A stretch of 64,000 bases of DNA from Candidatus Woesearchaeota archaeon. GTDB taxonomy: Archaea > Nanobdellota > Nanobdellia > Woesearchaeales > 21-14-0-10-32-9. Both the position numbers and the translations under genes were made by a program. This document shows, one piece after another, positions 6,682 through 54,434 of the stretch (position 1 is its first letter; every line of letters begins with the position of its first letter). The stretch is taken from positions 1,419-65,418 of the forward strand of contig JAIPHP010000003.1 of assembly GCA_021735165.1 (NCBI GenBank). The letters are read 5' to 3'. The notes under the pieces were generated by a model. That model did not search any database, was not told the DNA's origin, and saw only the letters and a list, made by a program, of their open reading frames with translations.

Positions 6682-6732
6682 GCAAATAAATTTAAAAAAC
6701 CAAACAAATTCTTATTCACATTGCTCATAAAT

Positions 6733-21580: not shown

Positions 21581-21707
21581 ATTCAACTGTAAATCTCTGA
21601 AAACAGGGTTTTTATGTTTAGATATTATTTGATATTAAGTCTAGTTTTAGTGAGATAATTCCGTTAATTGAGTAATATTTATAAACTAGCATAACTTTAC
21701 CACATCC

Positions 21708-22307: not shown

Positions 22308-22308
22308 A

Positions 22309-24323: not shown

Positions 24324-24332
24324 TAATGGCAC
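24286..24332. repeat. 47-bp direct repeat copy 1 (tttcactatctaagaagagaacNgagggggaagaataataatggca), flanks rhuM
   Basis: 46/47 identical to 25351-25397; contains the SD GAGGGGGAAG and the ATG of rhuM. Confidence 0.7.
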
Positions 24333-25348: not shown

Positions 25349-25350
25349 AG

Positions 25351-25397
25351 TTTCACTATCTAAGAAGAGAACAGAGGGGGAAGAATAATAATGGCAA
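25351..25397. repeat. 47-bp direct repeat copy 2, carries the SD and ATG of hsdM
   Basis: Matches 24286-24332 with one mismatch. Confidence 0.7.
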
Positions 25398-27100
25398 ATA
25401 TTACAGAATTAGCAAACTTCATATGGAGTGTAGCAGATCTCTTAAGAGGAGATTATAAACAATCAGATTACGGAAAAGTAGTCTTACCTTTCACGGTTTT
25501 AAGAAGACTTGATTGTGTTATAGAACCAACAAAAAAGAAAGTGCTTGATTATCTTCCAAAAATAAAAGGAATGAATATTAAAAATGCAGATCCAATTCTC
25601 AACAAAATTGCAGGATTAAATTTTCATAACAAAAGTAAGTTTGATTTTGAAAAACTAGTAGCAGATCCTGATAATATTGCTTCAAATCTAAGAAATTATA
25701 TCAACGGATTTTCTGAAGATGCAAGAAGTATAATGGAGTATTTTGACTTTGACAAAGAAATAGGTAAGCTCGATGATGCGAATTTGCTTTATATGATTGT
25801 TAAAAGATTCTCAGAAGTTGATTTACATCCTAACAAAATAAGTAATATTGAAATGGGGTATGCTTTCGAAGAACTTATCAGAAAATTCTCAGAGATATCT
25901 AATGAAACTGCTGGAGAGCACTTTACACCCAGAGAAGTAATTAGACTAATGGTAAATATTCTTTTCTTGAACGACAGAGATATTCTGACTAAGAAAGGAG
26001 TTACCAAAACCCTTTACGATCCTGCTTGTGGTACTGGAGGAATGCTTTCAGTTTCAGAAGAACATTTAAGAGAATTAAACCCAGATGCTCGTTTGGAAGT
26101 CTTTGGTCAAGAAATTAATCCTGAGTCTTATGCTATCTGTAAATCTGATATGGTTATTAAAGGTCAAAATACTGCAAATATAAAATATGGAAATACATTT
26201 ACGCATGATGGATTAGAGTTTAGCAAATTTGATTATATGCTTTCAAATCCTCCATTCGGAGTTGATTGGAAGAAATATGCTAAGCATGTAAAAGATGAAC
26301 ATGGAAACAGAGGTCATGCAGGAAGATTTGGTGCTGGGTTGCCTCGTATTTCTGATGGTTCATTGTTATTTTTACAACACATGATTTCAAAGATGAAACC
26401 GACTGGTTCTCGAATTGCTATTGTGTTTAATGGGTCTCCCCTATTTACTGGAAGTGCAGGTTCAGGAGAAACAGAAATAAGACGTTGGATTATTGAAAAT
26501 GATTGGCTTGAAGCAGTTATAGCTTTACCTGATCAACTATTCTATAACACAGGAATTAATACATATATTTGGATTATTTCAAATAAAAAATCTATTTATA
26601 GAAAGGGGAAAGTTCAATTAATTAATGCTACATCAGACAAATTTTATTCTAAGATGAAAAAGAGTCTTGGAAGTAAAAGACATGAAGTTGACAAAGTTTC
26701 AGAAATTACTTCCCTTTATGGTGATTTTAAGAATGGGAAATTCTGTAAACTTTTTGATAATGATGATCTTGGTTATTGGCAAGTTACTGTAGAAAGACCA
26801 TTAATGAAAGATGGAAAACCAGTTACTGATAAGAATGGCAATCCAAAACCTGACAGCTCATTAAGAGATACTGAAATAATACCATTGACGCAAGACATTA
26901 ATGAATATATTGAGAAAGAAGTAAAGCCTCATGTTCCTGATGCTTGGGTTGACGAATCAAAAACCAAGAAAGGGTATGAGATTAATTTTACTAAATATTT
27001 CTATGAATACAAACCTCTTCGAAGTTTGGCAGAAATCAAGAAAGATATTCTTGCTTTAGAAGAAGAAACAAAAGACATGATCGAGGAGGTTGTTGAATGA
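25391..27100 (+). CDS. hsdM: type I restriction-modification system methyltransferase subunit HsdM
   Basis: N6-adenine MTase motifs: DPACGTGGML (motif I) and LSNPPFG (motif IV); N-terminal HsdM_N-like region. Confidence 0.9.
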   Translation: MANITELANFIWSVADLLRGDYKQSDYGKVVLPFTVLRRLDCVIEPTKKKVLDYLPKIKGMNIKNADPILNKIAGLNFHNKSKFDFEKLVADPDNIASNLRNYINGFSEDARSIMEYFDFDKEIGKLDDANLLYMIVKRFSEVDLHPNKISNIEMGYAFEELIRKFSEISNETAGEHFTPREVIRLMVNILFLNDRDILTKKGVTKTLYDPACGTGGMLSVSEEHLRELNPDARLEVFGQEINPESYAICKSDMVIKGQNTANIKYGNTFTHDGLEFSKFDYMLSNPPFGVDWKKYAKHVKDEHGNRGHAGRFGAGLPRISDGSLLFLQHMISKMKPTGSRIAIVFNGSPLFTGSAGSGETEIRRWIIENDWLEAVIALPDQLFYNTGINTYIWIISNKKSIYRKGKVQLINATSDKFYSKMKKSLGSKRHEVDKVSEITSLYGDFKNGKFCKLFDNDDLGYWQVTVERPLMKDGKPVTDKNGNPKPDSSLRDTEIIPLTQDINEYIEKEVKPHVPDAWVDESKTKKGYEINFTKYFYEYKPLRSLAEIKKDILALEEETKDMIEEVVE

Positions 27101-28362
27101 ACACCTACTCTGAATACAAAGACAGTGGTATTGACTGGATTGGAAAAATTCCAAAGAGTTGGCAAGTTAAGAAATTAAAGTATATTGCAGACATTAAAAC
27201 AGGCGATAAAGATACAGTTGATCGTGAAGATGATGGAAAATATCCTTTTTTTGTTAGGTCACAGACTGTGGAGAAAATTAGTTCATATTCATTTGACGGT
27301 GAGGCAGTATTAACTGCAGGAGATGGGGTAGGCGTAGGTAAAGTATTTCATTATATTAATGGCAAATTTGATTATCATCAAAGAGTATATGGAATAAAAA
27401 ATTTCAAAGATGTAAATGGAAGATATTTTTATTATTTCCTTAAAGAAAATCTGCGTAAAGAAATTGCAAGAAATAACGCTAAATCAACTGTTGATTCTTT
27501 AAGATTGCCAATGTTTAAGGATTTCCATGTTACTTTTGGAAACATAGATGAGCAGAAAAAAATTGTTGATTTCTTAGATTCGAAATCAGAAAGAATTAAA
27601 GAATTTGTACATAAGAAAAAAGAACTTATAGAACTTCTTAAAGCACAGCGAATATCTCTTATCAATCAAGTTATTACTAAAGGTTTGAATAGAACTGTTG
27701 AATTAAAAGAGTCTAATATAACTTGGATTGGAAAATTTCCGAAGCATTGGATTATTAAGAAACTTAAATATAATACCTATATTAAAGGCAGAATAGGTTG
27801 GCAAGCATTAAAAACTGATGAGTTTGTTGATGAAGGTCCTTATTGTGTTACAGGAACCGACTTTAAAGAGGGGGAAATCAATTGGAATAGTTGTTATCAT
27901 GTTGGTGAAGAAAGATGGGCGATGGATAAATTCATCCAATTGAAAGAAAAAGATCTTGTAATTACTAAAGATGGAACAATTGGTAAAATTGCAATTGTAA
28001 AAAATTTAAATGGTAAAGCTTGTTTGAATAGTGGCGTTTTTGTTACAAGACCAAAGAATGAAGATTATATTACTGAGTATATGTATTGGGTTTTAAATTC
28101 AACTATATTTACTGAATTTATTAATTTTGAAAAGAAAGGCACTACTATTTCCCATTTATATCAAAATGTATTCGAGAATATGCCTTATACTCAACCTCCT
28201 ATCTCTGAACAGAAAGAGATTGTTAAATTTTTAGATCAAGAAACATCACAAATAGATAAATCCATAGAAAAGATTCAGAAAGAGATTGGGCTTTTAGAGG
28301 AGTACAAGGAAGCTCTTATTTCTGAGGCTGTGACTGGAAAAATAAAGGTGACGCATGAATAA
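27097..28362 (+). CDS. hsdS: type I R-M specificity subunit HsdS
   Basis: Two target-recognition domains each followed by conserved coiled-coil repeats (QKKIVDFLDSKSERIKEF... / QKEIVKFLDQETSQIDKSIEKIQKEI...); 4-nt overlap with hsdM. Confidence 0.85.
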   Translation: MNTYSEYKDSGIDWIGKIPKSWQVKKLKYIADIKTGDKDTVDREDDGKYPFFVRSQTVEKISSYSFDGEAVLTAGDGVGVGKVFHYINGKFDYHQRVYGIKNFKDVNGRYFYYFLKENLRKEIARNNAKSTVDSLRLPMFKDFHVTFGNIDEQKKIVDFLDSKSERIKEFVHKKKELIELLKAQRISLINQVITKGLNRTVELKESNITWIGKFPKHWIIKKLKYNTYIKGRIGWQALKTDEFVDEGPYCVTGTDFKEGEINWNSCYHVGEERWAMDKFIQLKEKDLVITKDGTIGKIAIVKNLNGKACLNSGVFVTRPKNEDYITEYMYWVLNSTIFTEFINFEKKGTTISHLYQNVFENMPYTQPPISEQKEIVKFLDQETSQIDKSIEKIQKEIGLLEEYKEALISEAVTGKIKVTHE

Positions 28363-28525
28363 AGAAGATAAAAATATACTTCTGGCGATAGGAGGCATGG
28401 CATTACTTGGATGGCTTTTAAGTAAAGACAAATATAAATGTCCTAGATGCAATTATCCCGTTACTAAAGAAATGTATTCTTGTCCTAATTGCGGTCAACC
28501 TTTGGCTTGGGAGGGTAAAAAATGA
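28355..28525 (+). CDS. 56-aa membrane-anchored zinc-ribbon protein
   Basis: MNKEDKNILLAIGGMALLGWLL (TM) followed by CPRC...CPNC; overlaps the hsdS stop (ATGAATAA) and the next start (ATGA). Below the ORF-track size cut-off. Confidence 0.4.
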   Translation: MNKEDKNILLAIGGMALLGWLLSKDKYKCPRCNYPVTKEMYSCPNCGQPLAWEGKK

Positions 28526-28845
28526 CTGATAAAGTTAAACCTCTGCCACCAGTAAAAGTAAAAATCAATCTTTGGAATTATTTAAAGTTAGGATTTTTAA
28601 TTTTAATATCTTGCATACTTTGGATTACATTAATTATTACAGGCATTAATTTGTTAGGGTATTATATTAAATCAATTATAGTTAATGGATTTTTTGATCC
28701 TGAAACCTTAAAATATGCCGTCATGCTTGTTGTTGGAGCTTATTTCTTTTTAATACTCGATAAAAATAAGATCTATGAAGCACTTAATGTAAAGAGGGGT
28801 TTGCCATTCATTACAGTTGAACAAATAGAGGAGAAAAAGAAATGA
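28522..28845 (+). CDS. small membrane protein (2 TM)
   Basis: 107 aa with two hydrophobic helices; translationally coupled (ATGA) on both sides. Confidence 0.45.
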   Translation: MTDKVKPLPPVKVKINLWNYLKLGFLILISCILWITLIITGINLLGYYIKSIIVNGFFDPETLKYAVMLVVGAYFFLILDKNKIYEALNVKRGLPFITVEQIEEKKK

Positions 28846-31181
28846 ATTTGATAATTAAAGTAATTACGGATTTAGGATATTTAATTTCTCCTGAAAATAG
28901 TCTTCTACTTTATTTCACAATATTGGGTATTTTAGTTACTTTAATTTCTATTTCAAGCAGTTTAACTAAAGAAGTACGTCAAGATTTATTTTATAATTAT
29001 TATATTAAATCAAAATTTCTGATTAGTTATCTAATATTTTATTTGATTTCATTTATTATTACATTTAGTTTTTATGTGTTTGAATGGGAATATTTGGATG
29101 TGTTATTAGGAACTCTTTTCATCATATTATTTGCTTGGTCGGTCTTTGTAATCTTTTTGTTTGTTAAAAATCTCAGTAGAAACTGGTTTTATGGACAACT
29201 TATTAGAAAGTTTAAATCAGAATTAAAAAAGACCAAACGGTCAGAAACCAAATATCAAACTCACACTCGAACAGAATTCAAATCATTAGATGATTTTCTA
29301 AAGAACCTAACTTATATTGAAACTACAAGTAGTGATTTTATCGAAGAAATAGAATTTGTAAAAGAGGTTGGTAGAATTACTCTAAAATCCAGTAATAATT
29401 ATATCTTTGATGATTTTTTTAGGCAACTTAAAAAAATAGAGAATCCTAAATTCTTTAGAAAATTAAGAAATTCTCTTTATGATTTAATGTGGGACAATTT
29501 CAATGAGCTAAGGGTTGTTATAAATCTTCAAAATATATATTCATCTTTATCAATTCATAGTTTTGAGAAAGTAAAAGAATTTGATAAAAATATTAATTCT
29601 GATGGTCTTAGAATTAAATCATTTAATGATATAAGATATATTGATTTATATGAAAAATCAACAGACCTAGATTGGATTAAGAGTTATGAAAGTCTAATTG
29701 TTAATACTATCAACAACTTATTTTCTTTAAGCAAGCAAACTATTTATTTGGATCTTGCTATAAAATCAAAGAAAAGATATCTTCTAGAACAATTGGGATC
29801 GATGGTTAAAGTTTTAGAGCATTATAATCACATACATGGACAAGATTTCCTAGATAATTATTATAATTTAAAATATAAAAAAGACATATCTGGAGATGAA
29901 AAGAAAAATTTGGATTTAGCAGATAGAAAATTGAATGCAATATCAGAACTAAAATCATTTCTTTGGAATAAACTGTCTGAATTATTCTATTTAATTTTAT
30001 ATGAAATTAATAGAAATGAACTTTCAAAAGATTTTTTTGAAGTGGCATTAAAGATATTTAATATTAAAAGTTTTAAAGACCAATTTTACTCTTATGAGAG
30101 ATTTGATAAATTAGATTTTTTAAATTACGACTGGTTTGAAGGCGGGGCTCAAGCTATTGCATCATTTAATTTTAACAAGTATAAATCATTGCTTTCATTC
30201 TATCAATATAAACTCGATGAGACTCTAGATTTAAATCAATATGGTGATGAACATTTCTCCAAACATAATGTTAATGATCTTAAAAATGCATTAAATGATT
30301 TGTCTGCAGAATATATAAATAAATATTTTGAATATGATTCTAAGCAGTTAAATGATTTTAAAAAGAAAGCCATTAAGGAAATTGACAATAAAATTAAAAT
30401 TTTAAAGAAGAATAAGAAAAAATATATTGCTGAAACTCCTTTAGTGAAAAAGTATGTGAATAATTTTATTTCAGACTGTAAATCTAATTGGGATAAAAAT
30501 CAAGAGATTCTCAAAAAGATCTTTAATTATGTTGAATTAGACAATGGTTATAAAGTTAAAAATTTCTTTGGTCAATACAAATTATTTGATAAAGATTGGT
30601 TTTTAGAATCTTTTGACAAAACTGTCGCTTTAGATAGAAGTTCAGGTCAGCACTTTGGAAGAGATCAAGTTATCAGTAAACGAAAAAATATATTAACAAA
30701 AATAAATGAAACTTTTAATGCCAAAATTGATAAAGAAATTATTGTAAAAGATCTATATTCTGATTTGAAGAAAATAATAAAGAAAAATAAAGAATACGTG
30801 TTGTTTTATAATTCTGATATTGGTAGAGAAATATATAGGATTCCTGATATTCAATGGGATAGACAAGAATGGCTTACAGCTTCGTTTAAAATTAATGATT
30901 CTAAAATTTTCTTGTATGCAACAAATATCGAGGAAAGTTTATTGTTTGAAAAGGAAAGCTTCACATTAGAGCAATATAAAGAAGGCTATGAGAAAATAAA
31001 ACAACCTTTAGTAGTGCAAGTTGAAGAAATAAAGAATAAGGATGAAATTAAAAAAATCAAAGAATCAAATGATAGATTCAAAAATACTCAAGATGTTCAG
31101 CAAAACGTAAAAATAAGAATTGCGGAAAAGTTCGAGATTAAACGTAATAAAGGTTCAAAATTTATTAGACTAAAAAGATAA
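28842..31181 (+). CDS. membrane-anchored large protein of unknown function embedded in the R-M operon (candidate abortive-infection/defense effector)
   Basis: 779 aa; about 4 N-terminal TM helices then a roughly 640-aa soluble domain with no recognizable motif; located between hsdS and hsdR. Confidence 0.5.
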   Translation: MNLIIKVITDLGYLISPENSLLLYFTILGILVTLISISSSLTKEVRQDLFYNYYIKSKFLISYLIFYLISFIITFSFYVFEWEYLDVLLGTLFIILFAWSVFVIFLFVKNLSRNWFYGQLIRKFKSELKKTKRSETKYQTHTRTEFKSLDDFLKNLTYIETTSSDFIEEIEFVKEVGRITLKSSNNYIFDDFFRQLKKIENPKFFRKLRNSLYDLMWDNFNELRVVINLQNIYSSLSIHSFEKVKEFDKNINSDGLRIKSFNDIRYIDLYEKSTDLDWIKSYESLIVNTINNLFSLSKQTIYLDLAIKSKKRYLLEQLGSMVKVLEHYNHIHGQDFLDNYYNLKYKKDISGDEKKNLDLADRKLNAISELKSFLWNKLSELFYLILYEINRNELSKDFFEVALKIFNIKSFKDQFYSYERFDKLDFLNYDWFEGGAQAIASFNFNKYKSLLSFYQYKLDETLDLNQYGDEHFSKHNVNDLKNALNDLSAEYINKYFEYDSKQLNDFKKKAIKEIDNKIKILKKNKKKYIAETPLVKKYVNNFISDCKSNWDKNQEILKKIFNYVELDNGYKVKNFFGQYKLFDKDWFLESFDKTVALDRSSGQHFGRDQVISKRKNILTKINETFNAKIDKEIIVKDLYSDLKKIIKKNKEYVLFYNSDIGREIYRIPDIQWDRQEWLTASFKINDSKIFLYATNIEESLLFEKESFTLEQYKEGYEKIKQPLVVQVEEIKNKDEIKKIKESNDRFKNTQDVQQNVKIRIAEKFEIKRNKGSKFIRLKR

Positions 31182-31200
31182 TATTTAAGGAGGCATCATA

Positions 31201-34200
31201 ATGGCAAAAACTAAAGAAAGTGATTTTGAGGAGGCAATCGTTGACTCTCTTGTAAACTCAGGAGGGTATGAAGAAGGAGATCCTAAGGATTTTGATTCAG
31301 AGACAGCAATATTCAAGAATGATTTATTCAATTTTTTACAAAAAACTCAACCTAATGAGTGGAAGAAATCTCTTGAGGTTCATGGTAATGATGTTGAAGA
31401 GAAAGTTCTATTTAGATTAACGCAAGAATTACAGTCTAGAGATATTTTAGATGTACTCCGAAATGGGTTTACCGATTATGGAGTAAAATACAAATTAGCT
31501 TTTTTTAAGCCTGAGACTAAATTAAATCTTGATGATGCTAAAAGATATAAGAATAATCTCTTAAAAGTTACACGACAAGTTCATCACTCTCCTAATAATC
31601 CTGATCTTTCCTTAGATTTAGTTTTATCTATTAATGGTATTCCTGTTGCTACAGCTGAACTTAAAAATCAGTTCACAGGTCAGAATGTATCTAATGCTGA
31701 AAGGCAATATATTGAAGATAGAGATCCTAATGAATTAATTTTTCAATTTAAGAGAAGAACCTTAGTTCATTTTGCTATTGATACTGATGAAGTGTTTATG
31801 ACAACTAAACTTGAAGGTAAGAGAACTAGATATTTGCCTTTTAATCAAGGAGATAATAATGGTGCAGGTAATCCCTTAAATCCTGATGGATACAAAACTG
31901 CTTATCTTTGGGAGTATGTTTGGTCTAAAGATAGTTGGATGGATATATTACAGAAATTTGTTCATTTACAAACTGAAACCTACAAGATAGAAGGTAAAAC
32001 TATAAAAAAAGAAAAGATGATTTTTCCTAGATACCATCAATTAGATTCTGTAAGAAAACTAACTCAAGATGTAAAGTCAAAAGGTGCAGGTATTAATTAT
32101 TTAATTCAACATTCTGCAGGAAGTGGTAAATCTAATTCTATTGCCTGGTTAGCTTATAGGTTAGCAAGTCTTCATAATAAAGAAGATAAGGCTGTATTCA
32201 ATAGTGTTATTGTTGTTACTGATAGAACTGTTCTTGATAAACAATTACAAGATACAATTTATCAGTTTGAACATAAACAAGGAGTTGTTCAAAAGATTGA
32301 TAAGAATTCAACTCAATTAGCTGAATCGCTTACAAAAGGTATTCCAATTATCATTACAACATTGCAAAAGTTTCCATTTGTTCTTGATAAAATTGGTAAA
32401 TTACCTAAGAGAAAATATGCTGTTATTGTAGATGAAGCTCATTCTTCTCAAGGTGGAGAATCTTCTAAAAAGATGAAAGAAGTTCTTTCTATAAAAGACT
32501 CTGAAAAAGCATTGAATACTTTAACTGAAGAAGCTGAAGATCTTGCAGAAGATGAAATCAGGAAATCTATGGAAGCGAGAGGAAAGCAAGATAATCTAAG
32601 TTTCTTTGCATTTACTGCCACTCCTAAAAATAAAACATTAGAAGTATTTGGTCATAAGAAAAATAAGAAACCATATCCTTTCCATCTTTACTCTATGCGA
32701 CAAGCAATTGAAGAGGGATTTATTATTGATATATTAAAGAATTTTACAACATACAAAACTTATTTCAAATTATCTAAAGAAATTGAAGATGATCCTAAGA
32801 TAAATAAAAAGAAAGCTGCACGAGCAATAGCAAGGTTCTTAACTTTACACCCTCATAATTTATCACAAAAAACCGAAGTTATGGTGGAACATTTTAGACA
32901 AGTTGTAATGCATAAAATTGGAGGTAAAGCAAAAGCAATGGTTGTAACAGCCTCTAGACTTCATGCAGTAAGATACTATCAAGAGTTCAATAAATATATC
33001 AAAGAAAAAGGATATAGCAATATTAAAACACTTGTCGCATTTTCAGGGATTGTTAAAGATGAATTCGGTAACGAGTTTAAAGAAACTATTATGAATGGTT
33101 TTAAAGAAAAAGAATTGCCTGATAAGTTTAATACTAGTGAATATCAAATTCTTTTAGTTGCAGAAAAATATCAGACTGGATTTGATCAACCATTACTCCA
33201 TACTATGTATGTTGATAAAAAATTATCTGGTGTGAAAGCTGTTCAAACATTATCTAGATTAAATAGAGTTTGTTCAGGAAAAGAAGATACTTTCATCCTC
33301 GATTTTGCAAATACAGAAGAGGAAATTATTGAATCATTCCAACCTTACTATGAAATTACAACTATTGATGAACCAACAAATCCTAATAGGTTATATGATC
33401 TTAAGACAAAACTAGATCAAACAAGAGTTTATACAAATTCAGAAATAGATAGTTTTGCTAAGTTCTTCTTTAAACCAAAAGAGCGATATACTGTAAGAGA
33501 TAATGCTCAATTAAATAGATTTATTGATCCTGCAGTTGATAGATATAAAGGAATTAGCGGTGAAGATGATAAAGAAGATTTCAAACACACACTTACTGTG
33601 TTTATTAGAACTTATGCCTTCTTGGCTCAGATAATGCCTTTTAATGATGCTGAACTTGAAAAACTATTTGCATACGGTAAACTTCTTTTGAACAAACTTC
33701 CAAAAAGACAACTAGGAGAACAATTCAAACTAAATGATGAAGTTGCCTTGGAATATTATAGACTACAAAAAATCAAAGAAAGTCATATTAAACTTGAAAA
33801 AGGAAAAGTTGGAGAGTTAAACTCTGCAAAAGAAGCAGGAATAAGAAAAGACAAAGAAGAGAAAGCCAAACTATCCGAATTAATCGAAGTATTAAACGAT
33901 AGGTTTGGAACTGACTTTACTGAAGCAGATAAATTGTTCTTTGATCAAATTGAAGCTGAGCTAGTTGAAGATCAAAAGCTAAAAAGTAGTGCCGAAGTAA
34001 ATAATATTGAAAACTTCAAGTTTGGATTTGATGACCAATTCATGAATAAGTTAATTGATAGGATGGAACAAAATGAAGACATCTTTAGAAAAATAAATGA
34101 TGATAAAGTATTTGCTTCTGTAGTTAAAGACTATATGCTAAAGAAAGTTTACAATAGACTAAAAGAAGAAGAGAAAACTCTTTCAAAGTATCTAACTCAA

Positions 34201-34266
34201 GACGGTTCTGCTATGGCTGTTGCTGATAAAAAAGAAAAGTACGGTAAGAAGAAGGTGAAGAAATAA
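31201..34266 (+). CDS. hsdR: type I restriction enzyme R subunit HsdR
   Basis: 1021 aa; SF2 helicase motifs including GSGKS-like QHSAGSGKSNS and DEAH box VIVDEAHSSQ; RBS AAGGAGG upstream. Confidence 0.9.
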   Translation: MAKTKESDFEEAIVDSLVNSGGYEEGDPKDFDSETAIFKNDLFNFLQKTQPNEWKKSLEVHGNDVEEKVLFRLTQELQSRDILDVLRNGFTDYGVKYKLAFFKPETKLNLDDAKRYKNNLLKVTRQVHHSPNNPDLSLDLVLSINGIPVATAELKNQFTGQNVSNAERQYIEDRDPNELIFQFKRRTLVHFAIDTDEVFMTTKLEGKRTRYLPFNQGDNNGAGNPLNPDGYKTAYLWEYVWSKDSWMDILQKFVHLQTETYKIEGKTIKKEKMIFPRYHQLDSVRKLTQDVKSKGAGINYLIQHSAGSGKSNSIAWLAYRLASLHNKEDKAVFNSVIVVTDRTVLDKQLQDTIYQFEHKQGVVQKIDKNSTQLAESLTKGIPIIITTLQKFPFVLDKIGKLPKRKYAVIVDEAHSSQGGESSKKMKEVLSIKDSEKALNTLTEEAEDLAEDEIRKSMEARGKQDNLSFFAFTATPKNKTLEVFGHKKNKKPYPFHLYSMRQAIEEGFIIDILKNFTTYKTYFKLSKEIEDDPKINKKKAARAIARFLTLHPHNLSQKTEVMVEHFRQVVMHKIGGKAKAMVVTASRLHAVRYYQEFNKYIKEKGYSNIKTLVAFSGIVKDEFGNEFKETIMNGFKEKELPDKFNTSEYQILLVAEKYQTGFDQPLLHTMYVDKKLSGVKAVQTLSRLNRVCSGKEDTFILDFANTEEEIIESFQPYYEITTIDEPTNPNRLYDLKTKLDQTRVYTNSEIDSFAKFFFKPKERYTVRDNAQLNRFIDPAVDRYKGISGEDDKEDFKHTLTVFIRTYAFLAQIMPFNDAELEKLFAYGKLLLNKLPKRQLGEQFKLNDEVALEYYRLQKIKESHIKLEKGKVGELNSAKEAGIRKDKEEKAKLSELIEVLNDRFGTDFTEADKLFFDQIEAELVEDQKLKSSAEVNNIENFKFGFDDQFMNKLIDRMEQNEDIFRKINDDKVFASVVKDYMLKKVYNRLKEEEKTLSKYLTQDGSAMAVADKKEKYGKKKVKK

Positions 34267-34267
34267 G

Positions 34268-34648
34268 ATGGCTTTTGCATTATCATTAAAACAACCATGG
34301 GCTGAATTGATTTTACAAGGTAAGAAAACAATTGAGACTAGGAGATGGAATACTGAGTTTCGAGGAGAGTTCTATATTCATGCTTCCAAAACCATTGATA
34401 AAGAAGCTTGTGAAGAGTTAGGGATTGATCCTTCTTCTTTGGTTACTGGTGTTATTGTTGGGAAGGCAACAATAGTTGATGTTAAGGAGTATTATTCTGA
34501 AGACCAATTTATGAAAGATAATTCTAAACACCGAGCAGGATTTTATGGGTTTGGACATCCTCTTTTTGGATTCATATTGGAAGATGTAGAGCGAATCGAA
34601 CCAATTCCTCAGAAAGGTGCTCTGAAGTTTTTTGAGGTGAATGTATAA
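34268..34648 (+). CDS. ASCH-domain (PUA-like) protein
   Basis: LSLKQPWAELILQGKKTIETRRW is the hallmark ASCH N-terminal motif; starts 2 nt after the hsdR stop. Confidence 0.65.
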   Translation: MAFALSLKQPWAELILQGKKTIETRRWNTEFRGEFYIHASKTIDKEACEELGIDPSSLVTGVIVGKATIVDVKEYYSEDQFMKDNSKHRAGFYGFGHPLFGFILEDVERIEPIPQKGALKFFEVNV

Positions 34649-36912
34649 TGGGATCACGTACTGGCTCTACATTTAAGTCATTGGCTGGACGAAAGAGAGG
34701 CAGTAAATTAAAGAGTATTGGTGCTTCTATCTCTGCAGGCATGCAAGCAGGAGAAACAGCTATTGTTTCATCTGGAGGTGCTGTTAGTGCAGGATCTGGA
34801 GCAATTGTTAGTGGAGGGGGTAGTGGTGCAGGAGTTGCTTTTGTAGCACCAATTGCAGGAGCAGCTGCTTTAGTTGCAAGTAGTAAGCCTTCTATGGATG
34901 TAGTGTATCATACTACCAAGTTAGCTGATTCTGTTTTAAAAAATCTGAATGACCTAACTAACAAATATCAAACTGCAAGTCAGAATCAGCCTGTTTATTC
35001 TTATTTTGCTAAAAGTCCAGTTGAGTTTCCAGTTAATATGGTTCAGAGCATGGTTGTTGATGAAGTTTCTGATCTTGCATGGGCTAATGTAAAGAGTGAA
35101 CTTGGATTAAAGACAACTGCACACCAGGATAGAATTGCGAAATTTATCATTTCACAATTAATTGGTCTTACATTGAACATGATTAAACAGAAAATAAAAG
35201 GAGAGAAAATAGACAAGCACTTTTTCTATAAAGAAGTTATGGGTGCAGCTATTGAATATTGCCTTGATGGGTTTATGCAATCAAATGCAGAAAATGAAGT
35301 CTTATCATCAAACCCTTCTGTTGCTTATTGCCAAATGGAGACTGGCTCACAAAAAGTTTTTCAAACAGCTACAAAAGAGATTGCCAAAGAACTGGCAGAA
35401 TTAATCTATGATGATATCTCTTCTCAAAACGAGTTTCCAGAACAAAAGCAATTCAATAGGATACTAAAGAAAAGAGTCACTGAAAAACTAAAGGTAGAAG
35501 TGGAAGCCACAGAATATGAAGGGGATTCTGATTTCAAAAAGCAACGTCTTCTCGCCTCTGATCAAAAAAAAGTCCCAGATAAATTAGATAAGAAAGATGT
35601 TGTGATCTCTACTCAAACCACTGTCAATAAAAGAAAGATTGATGATTCTTTGAGAATACGATTTACCGCACCAGAGAATGATTATGTAAGGGGAAGGATA
35701 ACTCCTGCACATAGGGATTTGCTTTCTATAACATCTACTATTTCAAAAATAGAGTATCTAATGAGAAGTGGTGATGTCACGAATATTTTACCTACTGACA
35801 CAATCATTTACTCCAACACAGACATTTCTAAGAAAACCAGAAGCCTTGTTAATACACTTGCTTCTTTTTTGCTAACCTTTAACCCAAATATATCTATAAA
35901 GAAAAATAGTGCCTCTTCGGAAAAAAAAGAACAAAAGGAAAATACAGAAAAATCTGATGTTATTGTTCTATTCTCTGGAGGATTAGATAGTTTAGCAGGA
36001 TTAGAATATGCAAAGAAAAAATACAAAAACCCTAAGTTTGTATATGTGAATAATCAAGTCAATAGAACAAGTGCTGTTGTAAGATATCTTCAACATAAAC
36101 TCCATTTAGGAGATGACCTTATTATTTTCCAAAGTCAGAAAGGAGGACAATTTCTACAACAGACAAGAGGATTTTTATTTCTCTCTGCCGCGGCTGTCAC
36201 CGCAGATGTGTTTGGAGCTAAAGAAATAATTGTTGCAGAATGCGGGGTAACAAAATATCAACCCAGTACAACCATTTCTGATGAGATTACAAAAACAACC
36301 CACCGATTAATGATTGAATTGGCAGAACATATTTTCTCTGAGTTCAATATAAATGTAAAAATCAAGTTCCCATTTGATATGAAAACTAAAGCTGAGATCA
36401 TAGCAGGATATCCAGACAAAAAGCTTCTTATTGATTCTCATTCGTGTAGATCATCAAGATTTTCAGATAAAGATAAGGATGAATGTGGATATTGTTTTGC
36501 TTGTCTACTAAAAAATATAAGTTTATCTTATGTGTTGGGCAAAAAACAAGACCAGTTTTTAATTGATCCAATTACAAATTCACAATCCTTTACAACTCAG
36601 AATTTAGGAAGAACCAGATCGTTAAAGAATAAGTGCTATGAATCAATTTTCTCACTTATTAATTTCTCCAAATCAATGCTTGCAGGCAATCTTCCAGAGC
36701 CAATACAAAAGTACATGCAGGACTATGGAACAACTAAATTATTCAAGAATCATGCAGAAGATATGATTTATGGGCTTATGTTCATGAAGAATAAAGGATG
36801 GGTAAAAAATGAGAAAGTTCTCGAATTGCTTAACAAAATTGAGAAGGAATCTTGGTTTGATAAAAAACAAATACTTGAACGAAGAAAAGAATTACTAAAT
36901 GTTAAGACTTAG
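34648..36912 (+). CDS. fusion protein: Gly/Ala/Ser-rich N-terminus, unknown middle domain, C-terminal QueC-like PP-loop ATPase
   Basis: C-terminal VIVLFSGGLDSLAG (SGGxDS PP-loop) and CGYCFACLLKN Cys cluster as in QueC; N-terminal 80 aa GSxGAxVSGGGSGAGVAFVAPIAGAAALVASS (Gly-zipper/hydrophobic); 1-nt overlap with the ASCH gene. Confidence 0.6.
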   Translation: MGSRTGSTFKSLAGRKRGSKLKSIGASISAGMQAGETAIVSSGGAVSAGSGAIVSGGGSGAGVAFVAPIAGAAALVASSKPSMDVVYHTTKLADSVLKNLNDLTNKYQTASQNQPVYSYFAKSPVEFPVNMVQSMVVDEVSDLAWANVKSELGLKTTAHQDRIAKFIISQLIGLTLNMIKQKIKGEKIDKHFFYKEVMGAAIEYCLDGFMQSNAENEVLSSNPSVAYCQMETGSQKVFQTATKEIAKELAELIYDDISSQNEFPEQKQFNRILKKRVTEKLKVEVEATEYEGDSDFKKQRLLASDQKKVPDKLDKKDVVISTQTTVNKRKIDDSLRIRFTAPENDYVRGRITPAHRDLLSITSTISKIEYLMRSGDVTNILPTDTIIYSNTDISKKTRSLVNTLASFLLTFNPNISIKKNSASSEKKEQKENTEKSDVIVLFSGGLDSLAGLEYAKKKYKNPKFVYVNNQVNRTSAVVRYLQHKLHLGDDLIIFQSQKGGQFLQQTRGFLFLSAAAVTADVFGAKEIIVAECGVTKYQPSTTISDEITKTTHRLMIELAEHIFSEFNINVKIKFPFDMKTKAEIIAGYPDKKLLIDSHSCRSSRFSDKDKDECGYCFACLLKNISLSYVLGKKQDQFLIDPITNSQSFTTQNLGRTRSLKNKCYESIFSLINFSKSMLAGNLPEPIQKYMQDYGTTKLFKNHAEDMIYGLMFMKNKGWVKNEKVLELLNKIEKESWFDKKQILERRKELLNVKT

Positions 36913-37570
36913 TTTGCTCATTAAAACTATAATATCCTTCATTACCAATAATTACATGATCCAACACTTTAATAGATAATAATTCTCCTGACTTAAACAA
37001 TATGTCTGTAATTTTAATATCTTCTTCTGAAGGTTCTGCTTCTCCTGATGGGTGATTGTGAACAAGAATAACAGAATTTGCACTTTCTTTTATTGCAGAT
37101 TTGAAGACTTCACGAGGATGAATCAAAGAACTATTCAAAGTACCTACAGAAATAATTTCATCCTTGATAACTCTGTTTCTTGTATCTAGATGTAAGATCA
37201 TGAAGTGTTCTTTATCCGCTCCATTAAGTTTTGGGTGTGCATAATCAAATACATCTTTTGCTGATTTTATTGGTTTTCCATTTTGTTTAGATAAACTGTG
37301 TCTTTTATTGAATTCAAATAGTGCAATTATTTGAGAAGCTTTAGCTTTTCCTATGCCTTTAATCTCTTGTAATTCTTTTAATGAACAAGAAGACAATTTA
37401 TTAACTCCATATTTAGAAATAAGTCTATTGGACATATCAATTACGTTTTCTTCTTTTGTTCCTTTTTGTAGAATCACAGCTAATAGTTCTGAGTCTGAAA
37501 GTACAGAAACTCCTTGTTTTTCCATTCTTTCTCTAGGTCTATTCTCTAAAGAGATGTCTTTAATACGCAT
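36902..37570 (-). CDS. radC: RadC-family JAB/MPN (JAMM) domain protein
   Basis: JAMM motif HNHPSGEAEPSEED (HxHx7Sx2D), N-terminal HhH-like region; typical RadC/DUF2466. Confidence 0.8.
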   Translation of the reverse strand: MRIKDISLENRPRERMEKQGVSVLSDSELLAVILQKGTKEENVIDMSNRLISKYGVNKLSSCSLKELQEIKGIGKAKASQIIALFEFNKRHSLSKQNGKPIKSAKDVFDYAHPKLNGADKEHFMILHLDTRNRVIKDEIISVGTLNSSLIHPREVFKSAIKESANSVILVHNHPSGEAEPSEEDIKITDILFKSGELLSIKVLDHVIIGNEGYYSFNEQTKS

Positions 37571-37628
37571 TAATACATGATATCTTATGGTGTTTGATAA
37601 AGGTTTCTAAGAATTATCCGAAAGATTT

Positions 37629-38620: not shown

Positions 38621-38957
38621 TATTCGTTACCTCCTTAACCTCTTTATCAAGTAGCTTCAAAACCCACTTTCCACTACCTTGTGACGAGTGTGAACTCTTG
38701 AAATAAACTGCGAGTAAAGAACCAACATTAAACTCGCTGGCTTTCTCAATTATTCCATGCAGTCCTCTCATCTTGAACTTCTCTTCAGCTGTACTTTTTA
38801 CTTCCACAAGGAAAGTCTTTGTTTTACTAAACAAAACAACATCACAGACAGAATATTTTCTTCTGCCTGATGCAGCTACTCTTTCTGTATGGAAACCTTG
38901 TTCCTTCATGAGATTACAAAAATCTCTTTCATATTGCAGATGGCTTTTTAGTCTCAT
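38598..38957 (-). CDS. hjc: Holliday-junction resolvase Hjc-like PD-(D/E)xK nuclease
   Basis: ERVAASG...CDVVLFSK...LVEVKST resembles the archaeal Hjc catalytic core (E...D...EVK). Confidence 0.6.
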   Translation of the reverse strand: MRLKSHLQYERDFCNLMKEQGFHTERVAASGRRKYSVCDVVLFSKTKTFLVEVKSTAEEKFKMRGLHGIIEKASEFNVGSLLAVYFKSSHSSQGSGKWVLKLLDKEVKEVTNNDRSDEI

Positions 38958-40470
38958 CTTCTAATCGTACCTCCACTTGTTTTTTTACTAGATGATGGGC
39001 TTTGCATTTGCCCACTATCACATCTTCGTGATTCTCATATCTTTCAAGCAAAATAGTTTCTTCATGTAAGTCTTTGATTTGTTTGTCCTTATCGTACTTG
39101 ATTCCCATTTCATTACAATAAGCGATGATCCTCTCCACTTTCTTCGCATATAATAACAAACATCCTGTCTGTCTTGCCCAATCAAATAATTTGATTCCCA
39201 TAGGATTATTCATAATCAAAACGGGCTTTAGAGAATTGAATTGAGGAATCTTTCTCATATCATATGAGAAACCTTGAGACATACAACCAATCATGGAAGT
39301 GATGTATTTTTTTCCAGCCATACCAAGATATTTTCCTTTCTTATCTCGCTTAATAGAAACAGCATAACCCATAATCGGAACATCCATGATATCATCATAG
39401 ACATAAATTAGATAATCTATTGGATCATTATCAAACTTCCAAACATCAACTAAACGTTTTCCTTTCTCGTCAGTATATTTGTGAATACTATCTTTGTTAA
39501 ACCACGAAGGAATCTTCTTAGGAAAATCAGCATTAAGACGAACCTGTAATTTATACCTCTTAATCAGATACATTACAAAATAGAATATTGCCTGTTCTTC
39601 AAACGCAAAACCAAGAGAACTATTATCAAGAATGCTTTTGACTACCTCTTTTTGATGAATCTTAGGAACAAGTTCTGCAATTAAATCTTCTGGTCTTGAA
39701 GGATTGTAATAATAACGTCTTTGCTTATAGGAAAAGACTTTCAACCAACTCACGCTGACCAATCGATAAATTATCCAAGATTTGATGACTTCCTCATCAA
39801 GCTTATACCTATCCTTAAGAATGTCTACTGGAAAGATCTCATTAGAATGTATTATATCAAGATACGCAGTCCTAATTCCCTTAGGCATCAAATTCAATAT
39901 TTTAAGCTTGACAGCATCATCATCCCTGCCATAGACATATCCTGGTTTTCTACCATGAATCATCTCAGTAGCAGGAATAGTGAACTCACTTCTGCTAATC
40001 TTTCCAGCAGTAAACAACTCCCTAATACACTGATAAGTATAATCCCAATTACCATAATCCTCAAGAGATGGATAATCCTTAAGCTGATAGAAGACCTCTG
40101 CTAAAGTAAGCCCTGCCTTATTATTCTGAAAGATCTCAAAGACTTTAGCCTTGATACCAACCAAGAGCTCATCAGTATCAACTGTCTTGTTAAAAGACTC
40201 AATCTTCCTATTGACATCATCCTCACTAATACCATACACAAAAGAACGAGAACACATCCTTTTCTCAGACTGGACTCTAACCTTACTCTTAACAATCAAA
40301 TCCTTAAGCAATAATTGCTTTAAATAACTAGAAACATGATGCTTCTGAAGAGAAGTACCCTTAAACTCATCAGCAATCTCACTGGAAATCACAGCCCTCT
40401 TACGCACTATGAATTTATAGATCTTGTAAGTGTAAGATCCAGTATTGAACATAATATTCTTTTCCGCCAT
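38929..40470 (-). CDS. hypothetical protein with N-terminal wHTH-like region, adjacent to the putative attR
   Basis: 513 aa ORF; first gene inside the right border; no integrase catalytic motifs recognized. Confidence 0.45.
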   Translation of the reverse strand: MAEKNIMFNTGSYTYKIYKFIVRKRAVISSEIADEFKGTSLQKHHVSSYLKQLLLKDLIVKSKVRVQSEKRMCSRSFVYGISEDDVNRKIESFNKTVDTDELLVGIKAKVFEIFQNNKAGLTLAEVFYQLKDYPSLEDYGNWDYTYQCIRELFTAGKISRSEFTIPATEMIHGRKPGYVYGRDDDAVKLKILNLMPKGIRTAYLDIIHSNEIFPVDILKDRYKLDEEVIKSWIIYRLVSVSWLKVFSYKQRRYYYNPSRPEDLIAELVPKIHQKEVVKSILDNSSLGFAFEEQAIFYFVMYLIKRYKLQVRLNADFPKKIPSWFNKDSIHKYTDEKGKRLVDVWKFDNDPIDYLIYVYDDIMDVPIMGYAVSIKRDKKGKYLGMAGKKYITSMIGCMSQGFSYDMRKIPQFNSLKPVLIMNNPMGIKLFDWARQTGCLLLYAKKVERIIAYCNEMGIKYDKDKQIKDLHEETILLERYENHEDVIVGKCKAHHLVKKQVEVRLEDETKKPSAI

Positions 40471-40641: not shown

Positions 40642-40666
40642 GCACCTAGAGTTGACAATGATTAAT
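40642..40666. repeat. 25-bp direct repeat copy 2, putative attR
   Basis: Exact match to 17032-17056. Confidence 0.65.
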
Positions 40667-40787
40667 TGTTAAACTCCTTAATGTCATTCGTGACATTTGA
40701 GTAATTATAAGCTAAGCTTAATTGCTCAGTCTGAGTTTTTTGTTTTATACACAACTTTTTTAAAATAACTTTTTTTCTTATAATTAT

Positions 40788-52937: not shown

Positions 52938-53699
52938 ATGAGAGAAAATAAAGTCTTCCTATTTAATAAATATGGCGAGAAACTTGCAGGTCTTGAAGCA
53001 ATTCCTTCTGAGAAAAAAGAGAAATATCCTGCAGTCATATTAGTTCATGGATTCGGGGTTACAAAAGAAGAATACGGATTATTTGATGGATTAGCAAAAA
53101 CTCTTTCAGATGCAGGTTTTATTGTGTATAGATTTGACTTTTCAGGAAGAGGAGAAAGTGAAGGAGATTACTCTGAGATGACTATAACTCGTGAATGTGA
53201 TGATCTTGACGCAATAATGAGCTTTGTCGAAACTCAGGATTTTGTTGATTCCGGGATGATAGGGATGCTAGCACAATCATTTGGAACTGCCGTAGTCGCT
53301 TCCTATGTTCCTGATGTAAAAGCTCTTGTCTTCACAGGAAGCATATCTGATTTTGAAAATGTTACTGCAAATCCAAAAAAATGGGATGTTCTTGACAAAA
53401 AAGGCATATCTATAAAAACAAAAGGACCTGGCGAAGTAATAAAAATAAATTCTGCTTTTTGGGAAGACTTAGAAAAATATGATGTGCTTAAATCTATAAA
53501 AAAAATAAAGTGTCCGATACTTTTTATACACGGTTCAGAAGATGGAAGAGTTCCGCTTGAAAGCATGGAAGCATATTATGAGAATGCAAATGAGCCAAAA
53601 GAAAAAATAATAATTCAAGGAGCAGATCATGATATGGAACCAAAAAGAGAAGAACTGAACAAAATTGTTGTCAATTGGTTCAAGAAAAATTTAAATTAA
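52938..53699 (+). CDS. alpha/beta hydrolase
   Basis: HGFG oxyanion motif and GxSxG-like nucleophile elbow (AQSFG), conserved C-terminal HG...D...H. Confidence 0.65.
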   Translation: MRENKVFLFNKYGEKLAGLEAIPSEKKEKYPAVILVHGFGVTKEEYGLFDGLAKTLSDAGFIVYRFDFSGRGESEGDYSEMTITRECDDLDAIMSFVETQDFVDSGMIGMLAQSFGTAVVASYVPDVKALVFTGSISDFENVTANPKKWDVLDKKGISIKTKGPGEVIKINSAFWEDLEKYDVLKSIKKIKCPILFIHGSEDGRVPLESMEAYYENANEPKEKIIIQGADHDMEPKREELNKIVVNWFKKNLN

Positions 53700-53700
53700 T

Positions 53701-53990
53701 TATTTACTTAAATATTTTTATTATTCTTACCTATGGTTACGGTCATAGAACCCATTCAGAACGTTGGAGGAACGTTCGCTTTGCTCAGTTCCTCAGTTAG
53801 AGTTTTACTTGAATATTTTTATTATTTTTACTGGGCAGTCTTTTGCTGCTTTTTCGTTCTAAGGTTACGGTCTTAGGTCCCATTCAGAACGTTGGAGGAA
53901 CGTTCGCTTTGCTCAGTTCCTCAGTTAGAGTTTTACTTGAATATTTTTATTATTTTTACTGGGCAGTCTTTTGCTGCTTTTTCATTTTCT
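53701..53990. repeat. tandem direct repeat, 118-bp unit x ~2.4 copies, containing the palindrome GAACGTTggaggAACGTTC
   Basis: Units 53745-53862 and 53863-53980 about 95% identical; partial copy 53701-53744; the last unit overlaps the 3' end of the ferredoxin gene. Confidence 0.8.
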
Positions 53991-54157
53991 TCTAGAAGAG
54001 CAAGGTCAAGGTCTGTTACGTATGTGTCTCCTTTCTTTTCAGAATCTTTCAGGTCTGCTTTTCCGTCTTTTTCGTTGATTTTCCACATGCTCGGACAATT
54101 CTCAACGCATGAGTTACATCCGATGCAGTCTTTTCTGTAATGAACTATTTTCGCCAC
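53933..54157 (-). CDS. 4Fe-4S ferredoxin
   Basis: CIGCNSCVENCP (CxxCxxCxxxCP) and a distal C; 74 aa. Confidence 0.8.
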   Translation of the reverse strand: MAKIVHYRKDCIGCNSCVENCPSMWKINEKDGKADLKDSEKKGDTYVTDLDLALLEENEKAAKDCPVKIIKIFK

Positions 54158-54164
54158 TTTGGTT

Positions 54165-54434
54165 TCACTCTTTTTTATTGAATATTAAGAAGTCAATATC
54201 TGTTATTGCTTTTATTTTGTGATATGTTCTTTCTGGTATTTCAAATTTTGCGGGAGCTTCAAGTATTTCTGTTTTGTCTTTAATTGTGATTTCTGCTCTT
54301 CCTCTTATTAAATATATTAATTCATATTCGTTTATTTCATTATCTCCTGAAACTGTATCTTTATATCTGTAAAGTATTTTGAATCCTTTTGCTTGGTATG
54401 TTTTTCCTTTTTCGTTTTCTTTTATTAGTTTCAT
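54165..54434 (-). CDS. small cupin-like protein
   Basis: 89 aa beta-rich ORF; weak cupin pattern. Confidence 0.35.
   Translation of the reverse strand: MKLIKENEKGKTYQAKGFKILYRYKDTVSGDNEINEYELIYLIRGRAEITIKDKTEILEAPAKFEIPERTYHKIKAITDIDFLIFNKKE

Follow-up and report, generated by a model that had tools for sequence, protein, structure and literature searches.

Hairpins repeated in series are known from the repetitive extragenic palindromic (REP) sequences and bacterial interspersed mosaic elements (BIME), which in bacteria lie between convergent genes, and from the transferrin-receptor mRNA with its multiple iron-responsive element (IRE) hairpins. Processes that act on the ends of genes have also been described. 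In the C-terminal displacement of Rhs genes, homologous recombination through circular intermediates is proposed to shunt the old tips downstream (Jackson et al. 2009, PMC2935791). By the account given in PMC3234194, with Pavlovic 2004 cited therein, ICESt1 and ICESt3 undergo accretion in the 3' end of fda in Streptococcus thermophilus, and integrons and integrase-less clusters of their attC sites (CALINs) are known in archaea, including DPANN (Ghaly et al. 2022, PMC9668308). The locus described here lies in a window of 64,000 nucleotides, the whole stretch of DNA that was analysed, from contig JAIPHP010000003.1 of the Candidatus Woesearchaeota archaeon assembly GCA_021735165.1. In it, a small ferredoxin gene (fdx) is followed by alternating copies of a 74-nt two-hairpin element, termed X, and of the 3' coding end of fdx, termed tails.

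At the DNA level, Rhs C-terminal displacement is the closest described process. In both cases a conserved gene gains a new 3' end, while the old ends remain downstream, silent, arrayed and still conserved; the proposed confinement of Rhs recombination to close relatives is a further likeness. An intact gene with dissociated 3' ends that keep a homologous lead-in is found in the window (tails B and C) and in related loci (tails 2 and 3 of L017 and L011, tail 2 of L015). The Rhs tips, however, are non-homologous toxin domains with immunity genes, which diversify the protein, whereas all fdx tails encode the same peptide and no diversification of the Rhs type is found among the displaced ends; the cargo is a 70-nt structured element, the units measure 100–130 bp, and the host is an archaeon. 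As in the accretion of integrative and conjugative elements (ICE) and cis-mobilizable elements (CIME), direct repeats of a gene 3' end flank the insert, a replacement end keeps the gene intact, and tandem units and non-autonomous remnants occur. Those elements, in contrast, are kilobases long, encode a tyrosine integrase and have fixed att repeats. An integrase-mediated integrative element was rejected for fdx, as the repeats stand only 74 nt apart and vary in length and boundaries, and no integrase recognisable by Pfam was found in the 64 kb.

With REP and IRE arrays, X shares repeated stable hairpins behind a stop codon that could protect the mRNA or bind a regulator; with REP/BIME it shares the position between convergent genes, and fdx encodes an iron-sulfur protein. 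REPs, however, are dispersed in hundreds of copies while X is specific to fdx, the X loops match neither the IRE nor the REP consensus, and the interleaved coding-end copies have no counterpart in those arrays. Units A and B of the window stand head to tail and are 96% identical, as expected from ordinary slippage or unequal crossing-over, but the unit, the junction and the hairpins are kept where the fdx proteins are only 72–80% identical, and the copies show selective constraint.

Recurrence of the X-plus-tail module in related lineages argues against a one-off duplication scar and marks it, on comparative evidence, as a maintained and previously undescribed element of one Woesearchaeota sub-clade. 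In the reading that we favour, at a little short of even confidence, X is a structured cis element of the fdx 3' untranslated region (3' UTR), whose copy number changes by homologous recombination between the tails. Both the RNA function of X and the recombination route are what we infer from the arrangement described below.

Architecture of the fdx locus

The fdx gene (53933–54157, minus strand) was identified in the open reading frame (ORF) list; it has a GTG start and encodes 74 amino acids of the single [4Fe-4S] cluster type (Pfam Fer4_15, 4.8e-11; Fer4_13, 2e-9). Its protein is 100% identical to an NCBI ferredoxin of 'Candidatus Woesearchaeota archaeon' (P0001); exact-protein look-ups for the window fdx and hydrolase returned no record. 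The presence of PCNA and beta-CASP ribonuclease genes in the window is consistent with an archaeal origin.

Read along the fdx sense strand, the locus runs from tail A through X_A, tail B, X_B and tail C to the stop codon of the convergent gene. Tail A is the live fdx end (last 51 nt, ...EKAAKDCPVKIIKIFK-stop, 53933–53983), and X_A (74 nt, 53859–53932) begins immediately after its stop. Tail B (53805–53858) comprises fdx codons N57–K74 and the stop, that is AAC followed by 51 nt identical to tail A. The second X copy, X_B (53731–53804), agrees with X_A at 70 of 76 aligned positions. Tail C (GTAAGAATAATAAAAATATTTAAGTAA, 27 nt, 53704–53730) corresponds to VRIIKIFK plus stop and lies 4 nt from the stop codon of an alpha/beta-hydrolase gene (52938–53699, plus strand; Pfam Hydrolase_4, 4.8e-18). 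All tails and X copies are given on the minus strand.

Tandem Repeats Finder (TRF) reports one strong tandem repeat, 53731–53983, with a period of 128, 2.0 copies, 96% matches and a score of 478. A repeat search gives units 53731–53858 and 53859–53986, 96% identical at the same 128-bp period, and a short third copy (53703–53730, 28 nt, 93%) at an offset of 101 nt instead of 128. The repetition at 53701–53990 is far above chance level, and the spacing of the 19-mer GAACGTTGGAGGAACGTTC (53759 and 53887) fits the period. The first-pass annotation had placed here a 118-bp tandem repeat with units at 53745–53862 and 53863–53980; the tandem repeat is real, but its unit is 128 bp and the unit boundaries had to be corrected to those above. 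The partial third copy that it listed exists at the 101-nt spacing and consists only of the last 8 fdx codons and the stop. It had also let the repeat supply about 20 codons of fdx; the overlap stands, with the last 16–17 codons and the stop. Tandem repetition of the fdx 3' coding end together with the adjoining downstream sequence was borne out, as was the presence in both units, and nowhere else in 64 kb, of a GAACGTT-N5-AACGTTC palindrome and a CTCAGTTCCTCAGTT motif. No other gene-end duplication was found in the 64-kb window.

The Logan contig L001 (SRR12088349, a data set that may be shared with the window's assembly) is identical to the window throughout the overlap read. Its end falls exactly at the last 31-mer to include the unique T before the repeat, which is how a k=31 graph behaves on entering a true repeat. 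The X-to-tail junction of the window recurs in the unrelated assemblies L015 and L017. The end point of L001 and the recurring junction thus argue that the repeat is not an assembly artefact. Short-read assemblies break at the module, where L001, L009, L015 and L016 all come to an end (L001 31 nt into the repeat, L009 within X), and the module may be taken for a misassembly.

The module in related lineages

The comparison covered five X-bearing and four X-less lineages. Besides the window, three lineages hold complete X/tail arrays and a fourth shows the X start. In L015/L016 (two ENA assemblies, fdx protein 78% identical to that of the window) the order is fdx, X, tail 2 (~53 nt). In the case of L017 (ENA, 72%) it is fdx, X1, tail 2 (~54 nt), X2, tail 3 (~39 nt), and in L011/L012 (a metagenome-assembled genome from NCBI and a Logan assembly, hydrolase 71% identical) it is fdx, Y, tail 2 (~27 nt), X, tail 3 (~34 nt). 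In L009 (ENA, fdx protein 92% identical) the stop is followed by TTCTAGCTGAGGAACCTTGCGT and the contig ends inside X. An X begins 0 nt after an fdx stop codon in all X-bearing lineages, the junction CCTTAGAA followed by [C/T]GA[A/G]AA[A/G]GCAGC is common to the window, L015 and L017, and the last tail abuts whichever convergent gene follows. The element Y of L011 (6495–6556, minus strand, 62 nt) stands between the live fdx stop and tail 2 and contains a GTAC-loop-GTAC hairpin whose loop, GGCATAAAACT, resembles that of X; with its 5' hairpin lost, it is probably a decayed X copy.

Unit numbers of 0, 1 and 2 are found among these assemblies, so that the copy-number variation raised as a prospect from the window alone is indeed present among relatives, and a recombination scar private to one genome no longer describes the repeat, because the same module stands behind fdx in other Woesearchaeota lineages. 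Of the loci without X, L002 has an fdx protein 92% identical to that of the window, and the stop codons of its fdx and orthologous hydrolase genes are 1 nt apart; L003 and L010 have 30–50 nt of ordinary spacer, and in the more distant L018 fdx abuts or overlaps a convergent gene.

Tail C carries AGA (R) and TTT (F), the residues of the nearest relatives (CGC/TTT in L002, AGA in L009), at the sites where live fdx and tail B have AAA and TTC; the TTT codon is common to tail C and L002. From these residues and the arrangement in L002, tail C is the ancestral fdx 3' end, ahead of which stand two tail-plus-X units. Two subtypes of X can be told apart, neither confined to a single host: between L015 X and L017 X1 the identity is 86–90%, against 77% for the fdx DNA of their hosts, which speaks for constraint on X, and X1 and X2 of L017 are ~70% identical.

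Two hairpins conserved by covariation

X_A contains a 5' hairpin GAGGAAC/GTTCCTC (53922–53916 paired with 53901–53895) and a 3' hairpin CTAAG/CTTAG (53876–53872 with 53863–53859, loop ACCGTAAC). In X_B the latter reads CTATG/CATAG (53748–53744 with 53735–53731), a compensatory double change in respect to X_A. Four of the five X_A–X_B differences cluster at the 3' hairpin, two of them forming this pair, and with 5 substitutions a double change of this kind has a chance of ~0.005.

In an alignment of six X copies, the 5' hairpin occurs as GAGGAAC/GTTCCTC, GAGGAAT/ATTCCTC, GAAGGAC/GTCCTTC and GAAGGGT/GCCCTTC, and the 3' hairpin as CTAAG/CTTAG, CTATG/CATAG, CAATC/GATTG and TTAAG/CTTAG with the loop A[G/C]CG[A/T]AAC. 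Overall, 98.6% of the cells are paired and 7 of the 12 pairs have changed on both sides; none of 500 shuffles matches these values, and slid controls are 26–56% paired. RNAalifold, run unguided, predicts the same two hairpins. The linker between them, CAAYGT..YTGRWTG.G, is kept at the sequence level. X varies in length between ~65 and 76 nt, carries short terminal inverted repeats (TTCTAAC...CTTAGAA), and has a G+C content of 46–47% against 19–33% in the flanks. The base pairs are thus conserved by compensatory change in independent lineages, as expected of a structured motif, and the hairpins are under selection.

The palindrome (53887–53905, second copy 53759–53777), which the first-pass annotation stressed, is present but specific to the window: it arises from a 9-nt loop insertion absent from all relatives and shares sequence with the 3' arm of the 5' hairpin of X, while what is conserved are the two other hairpins. 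The RNA folding suggested there for one unit gave a divided outcome. Sense-strand folds of X_A predict the conserved hairpin and not the palindrome; for X_B the conserved hairpin is found in the centroid only, and the minimum-free-energy structure forms the palindrome. The palindrome and the conserved 5' hairpin are thus competing structures.

With model R1 the known X copies reach 77–85 bits (X_A, 53855–53932, 82.4 bits, E 1e-18; X_B, 53727–53804, 76.6 bits). With filters off, the rest of the 64-kb window gave only weak matches of 20.6, 19.9 and 15.7 bits, and nothing was detected in the X-less related loci; apart from the copies behind fdx, neither the window nor 60 kb of related loci held a strong X copy. 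Within the 64 kb of this genome the strong matches are therefore only the two copies behind fdx, and motif searches allowing 3 mismatches likewise returned the two copies only; the dispersed repeat family without link to gene ends, considered at first, is not what the model detects. The Rfam scan proposed at first pass matched no family to X: at gathering thresholds the window matched none of the Rfam 15 families (terminators, riboswitches, ribozymes, C/D sRNAs and tRNA-like elements included), and a scan of 53600–54100 at E<=10 gave six far-sub-threshold matches, none centred on X. ARAGORN found no tRNA or tmRNA in the 64-kb window. No match was obtained by blastn with X against phages and plasmids, nor in viral contigs with two X patterns and fdx. 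The window-specific 19-mer of the palindrome had three chance matches in G+C-rich DNA among genome and metagenome contigs, and an antisense ORF spanning X had no homologue in a protein search.

Several identities of X were considered and rejected. Degraded fdx coding sequence does not fit, since local alignments on either strand are no better than shuffles and only the leader matches. For a hammerhead, C/D box or K-turn reading of the CUGA motifs, the registers misfit, there is no UGAUGA box and Rfam is silent. A tRNA fragment or integrase att site was discarded with the negative ARAGORN result, and a miniature inverted-repeat transposable element (MITE), an IS200/IS605-derived or a dispersed REP-like family with the count of two copies in 64 kb and the lack of flanking direct repeats at the weak R1 matches.

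The tail copies

The frame of tail B is closed by a TAG in the 3' hairpin arm and has no start codon. With this, and with a period, 128, that is not divisible by 3, no tail copy is translatable, and translation by read-through was rejected. Nevertheless, the tails have diverged in the manner of coding sequence. Tail differences within genomes comprise 17 synonymous and 4 non-synonymous changes (expected synonymous fraction 0.19, P = 1.3e-9), and the peptide of every tail is the same, ...DCPV[K/R/N]IIKIFK(K). All three L017 tails bear the KK ending of their clade, and tail 2 of L017 keeps the consensus NEKAAK where the live gene reads NIKAAE. The almost purely synonymous divergence and the L017 endings suggest that the tails are either former or foreign live ends, or are held similar by gene conversion or by selection for homology. 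In each unit X is followed by a copy of the last 9–18 codons of fdx. The repeat lengths vary (51–54, 27, 33–34 and 39–40 nt), and at least 27 nt of A/T-rich tail, ATAATAAAAATATT, precede every X. A diversity-generating retroelement was rejected: no reverse-transcriptase domain was found, tails A and B of the window do not differ, and between the other tails the changes are synonymous and of every type at third positions, not adenine-specific.

The fdx leader and the probable origin of X

The 3' hairpin of X and the bases that follow resemble the fdx leader, with AATGA matching leader plus start codon. The leader motif AAGAGTGAAACC, present in the window (54161–54172, minus strand, including the stop codon of the upstream cupin gene) and in L002, is homologous to the loop and 3' arm of the X 3' hairpin (AAGAGCGAAACC in relatives). 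L015 has TAAGAGCGAAACCTTAGAATGA ahead of the live start codon as well as ahead of tail 2 (19/19 aligned, p 0.003), and in L011 the local alignment of X with its own fdx leader gives p 0.007. The X-plus-tail unit thus looks like a 3' flank followed by leader and an fdx lacking codons 2–57. The 3' hairpin being a leader copy, the first such unit was probably a second fdx copy that lost codons 2–57.

An X-like element also lies within positions 1–95 of L015 and of L016, contigs of different ENA accessions that share their first base, 95 nt ahead of fdx. It consists of GGAAAT-TTC-ATTTCC, then GAACG and then TAAGAGCGAAACCTTAG, and extends to the fdx start codon. Gene content between the U32 peptidase gene and fdx varies (cupin and S51 peptidase in the window, NUDIX in L011, HIT in L010, no gene in L002, L003, L017 or L018). 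The upstream genes of the window (54158–54180), L002 (1255–1280) and L011 (6778–6800), although unrelated, all have the ending ...AAGAGTGA, which falls inside the same fdx leader, AAGAGTGAAACC. Gene content around fdx thus seems to change at a hot spot with fixed boundaries.

Probable transcription of the array

Archaeal RNA polymerase terminates at oligo-T. In the window, L015 and L017, the array read on its sense strand is free of T runs of length four or longer up to the end of the last tail, and L011 has one T4, at the start of its X; in the window the first sense-strand T5 (53689–53685) falls within the last codons of the hydrolase gene. Transcripts of fdx would thus probably run through the whole array as 3' UTR, with that T5 as their likely end. 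On the antisense strand, T5 runs occur in every window tail, and relatives have such runs but fewer; transcripts of the convergent gene would accordingly be stopped at the first tail.

The structured RNA and the recombination product offered by the first-pass annotation both remain reasonable readings, but the terminator that it also offered is not one in the classical sense, since the sense strand of the array lacks a T run. A bacterial-type intrinsic terminator was rejected: neither X hairpin is followed by a T run on this strand, and terminator-like matches occur only on the opposite strand, inside the tails. These are a GGGCAG...CTGCTT hairpin followed by TTTTC in each long tail (53833–53851 and 53961–53979, plus strand), and together with the T5 runs they would be predicted to block antisense transcription arriving from the hydrolase gene. 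Elsewhere in the window, two beta-CASP/RMMBL ribonuclease genes of the aCPSF or RNase J type lie within 9 kb (1784–3076 and 9575–10885), and their products are candidate 3'-end-processing enzymes of the organism.

A model for gain, loss and function of X

In the favoured reading, units would be gained, multiplied and lost by host homologous recombination between the gene end and its downstream copies. A gain could occur by single-crossover insertion of a unit circle, which is equivalent to unequal crossing-over, or by transfer from relatives with the fdx gene as left arm and a tail copy as right arm; expansion would follow the same route. Each gain would strand the previous gene end downstream, tail C being the original end and tail B a displaced one. 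Recombination from tail to tail would remove a unit precisely and restore the X-less state of relatives. Transcribed as fdx 3' UTR, the hairpins would act in cis on the fdx mRNA, for example in 3'-end protection, as processing signals or as a protein-binding site, in the manner of REP-type or IRE hairpins.

Several points weigh against this reading. A double-stranded circle of 128 bp is physically strained. Tail copies start at differing codons (57–59, 63, 64 and 67), so that simple unequal crossing-over is insufficient and extra deletions or different founding events are needed. The z-scores of single-sequence folding are modest (-0.2 to -2.8), the strand signal is thin (two sense G-U pairs against one antisense), and the covarying hairpins could equally be single-stranded-DNA structures. 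The number of lineages compared is limited, and a role in the 3' UTR does not account for the X-like element directly upstream of fdx in L015.

An unlikely but consequential variant is an enzyme-free mobile module, in which X carries the end of its host gene as its sole 'integration machinery' and leaves the gene undamaged. Such a module would spread, multiply and excise purely via host homologous recombination, with the hairpins serving maintenance or processing and conceivably giving unit-length (128-nt) RNAs or DNA circles.

Alternative explanations

X plus tail could instead be a selfish miniature integrative element, with hairpins recognised, possibly as single-stranded DNA, by a recombinase or nuclease encoded elsewhere. 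The fdx tail would serve as its attachment or homology site, and the element would target the fdx end and repair the gene it enters, like CIME/ICE accretion at fda. The patchy distribution speaks for this (of two relatives with 92% identical fdx, L002 lacks X and L009 has it), as do the subtypes shared across hosts and mixed within one (L017 X1 is ~88% identical to L015 X and ~70% to L017 X2), the junction identical in three lineages, the constant start of X directly after a stop codon, the short terminal inverted repeats, the gene-content hot spot around fdx, and the precedent of ICESt1 and ICESt3, which integrate in the fda 3' end and form tandem accretions (PMC3234194). We nevertheless consider it unlikely. 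Tail start points vary, unlike in site-specific recombination, strong X copies are confined to the position behind fdx within the window and 60 kb of related loci, and the viral, phage and plasmid collections gave no match. Pfam recognised no integrase, transposase, reverse transcriptase or HUH protein among the ~55 window ORFs, of which about a third matched no family, so that an unrecognised enzyme may be encoded.

The leader resemblance supports a second alternative, in which the array is a decaying, functionless remnant of tandem duplications of whole fdx, X being the old intergenic spacer, composed of a 3' flank and the leader of the next copy, and the tails the leftovers of internal deletions. 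In L015, the X 3' hairpin with AATGA equals the fdx leader with start codon over 22 identical nt, and L011, the window and L002 are similar; the junctions agree with deletions that run from the start to codons 57–59 by way of AATGA or GAAAA microhomology, and the X-like element upstream of the live gene of L015 would find a place. Neutral sequence, however, would not keep 12 base pairs through seven compensatory changes, and the tails are nearly free of non-synonymous changes and indels while their silent sites have diverged by ~30%. A compact genome should also shed direct repeats fast, and a tandem pair of full-length fdx occurs in none of the 9 lineages. We therefore regard a mere remnant as improbable.

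Somewhat more improbable still is the reading of each X as an independent small RNA gene, transcribed from one strand or the other, with the A/T-rich fdx tail in front as a TATA-like promoter. Raised G+C marks RNA genes in A/T-rich archaeal genomes, which suits the composition of X, and the structure is conserved; a tail acting as promoter would also explain why X and tail always travel together, at least 27 nt of A/T-rich tail standing before every X. But no oligo-T terminator follows X on the sense strand, an antisense transcript would meet T5 runs at once, TATA-like strings are ubiquitous in DNA of 30% G+C, no Rfam relative exists, and no X follows the last tail of any array.

As a DNA site, either a protein-binding palindrome array or an attC-like site in a CALIN with the tails as mini-cassettes, X appears very improbable. 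Archaeal integrons and CALINs do exist, Nanoarchaeota/DPANN included (PMC9668308). Like attC, X is a structured site, poorly conserved in sequence and kept by pairing, which stands after a stop codon in an array; its 65–76 nt lie within the 60–140 nt of attC sites, and its ends resemble RYYYAAC...GTTRRRY at 5–6 of 7 positions. Covariation and RNAalifold, however, define two independent hairpins instead of one long R/L-box hairpin with AAC...GTT pairing, the 3' end is CTTAG-AA and not GTTRRRY, and the terminal pairing is lost in X_B and L017 X2; an attC identity was rejected on this architecture. No intI gene, tyrosine recombinase, ordinary cassettes or other attC-like sites were found nearby among the window ORFs, and a single gene is involved. 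Differing stems in one genome (CTAAG and CTATG) disfavour a single sequence-specific dimeric binder.

An assembly artefact or a recent, meaningless replication slip private to this genome is hardly credible: the window is probably from a metagenome-assembled genome, to judge from the matches of its proteins to NCBI 'Candidatus Woesearchaeota archaeon' entries, and its units are 96% identical, as strain variants might be, but the k-mer graph behaviour of L001 fits a true repeat, and junction and architecture are found also in L015/L016, L017 and L011/L012, from different studies and assemblers.

Other features in the window

The weak R1 matches lack flanking direct repeats. That at 40659–40737 (minus strand, 20.6 bits), which may be due to chance, opens with AACTCAGACTGAG like X and lies ~190 nt upstream of a gene for 513 amino acids (38929–40470); that at 13497–13556 (minus strand, 15.7 bits) may likewise be due to chance. 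The third (6769–6830, minus strand, 19.9 bits) comprises a hairpin, an AATGCG linker and a CAATG-AGCGCAAT-CATTG hairpin, and may be either a distant relative or due to chance. It falls within 6700–7260, ~560 nt of G+C-rich DNA with no credible ORF, which on the plus strand shows a tRNA-like T-arm and acceptor 3' strand (GGGGGTTCGAATCCCTCCCCCCTCA, ~6925–6960), where ARAGORN and Rfam find nothing, and a 28-nt direct repeat (6980–7007 and 7177–7204). The region could hold a split or intron-containing tRNA or another non-coding RNA.

A defence-like island occupies 21700–37600, with HTH, Bro-N, PD-(D/E)XK nuclease, RhuM, ASCH and RadC genes. It includes a type I restriction-modification system (hsdM 25391–27100, hsdS 27097–28362, hsdR 31201–34266) and a protein of 754 amino acids with a weak QueC-like match.

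Implications

DPANN archaea have tiny, streamlined genomes in which, to our knowledge, non-coding RNAs and genome rearrangement are almost unexplored. The fdx locus offers a candidate structured RNA or DNA motif with covariation support outside Rfam, and a clear natural case of archaeal gene-end displacement without a change of the protein. Its untranslated coding-end copies evolve like coding sequence, a pattern suggesting either that gene conversion between them and the live gene is frequent or that homology itself is under selection. Should X serve to stabilise or regulate this iron-sulfur electron carrier's mRNA, it would be a first cis-regulatory element for the group; if X is selfish, it would show how little sequence mobility needs. 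Were the enzyme-free module real, it would be a genetic parasite or symbiont of a new class, guided by homology, within the reduced genomes of DPANN archaea.

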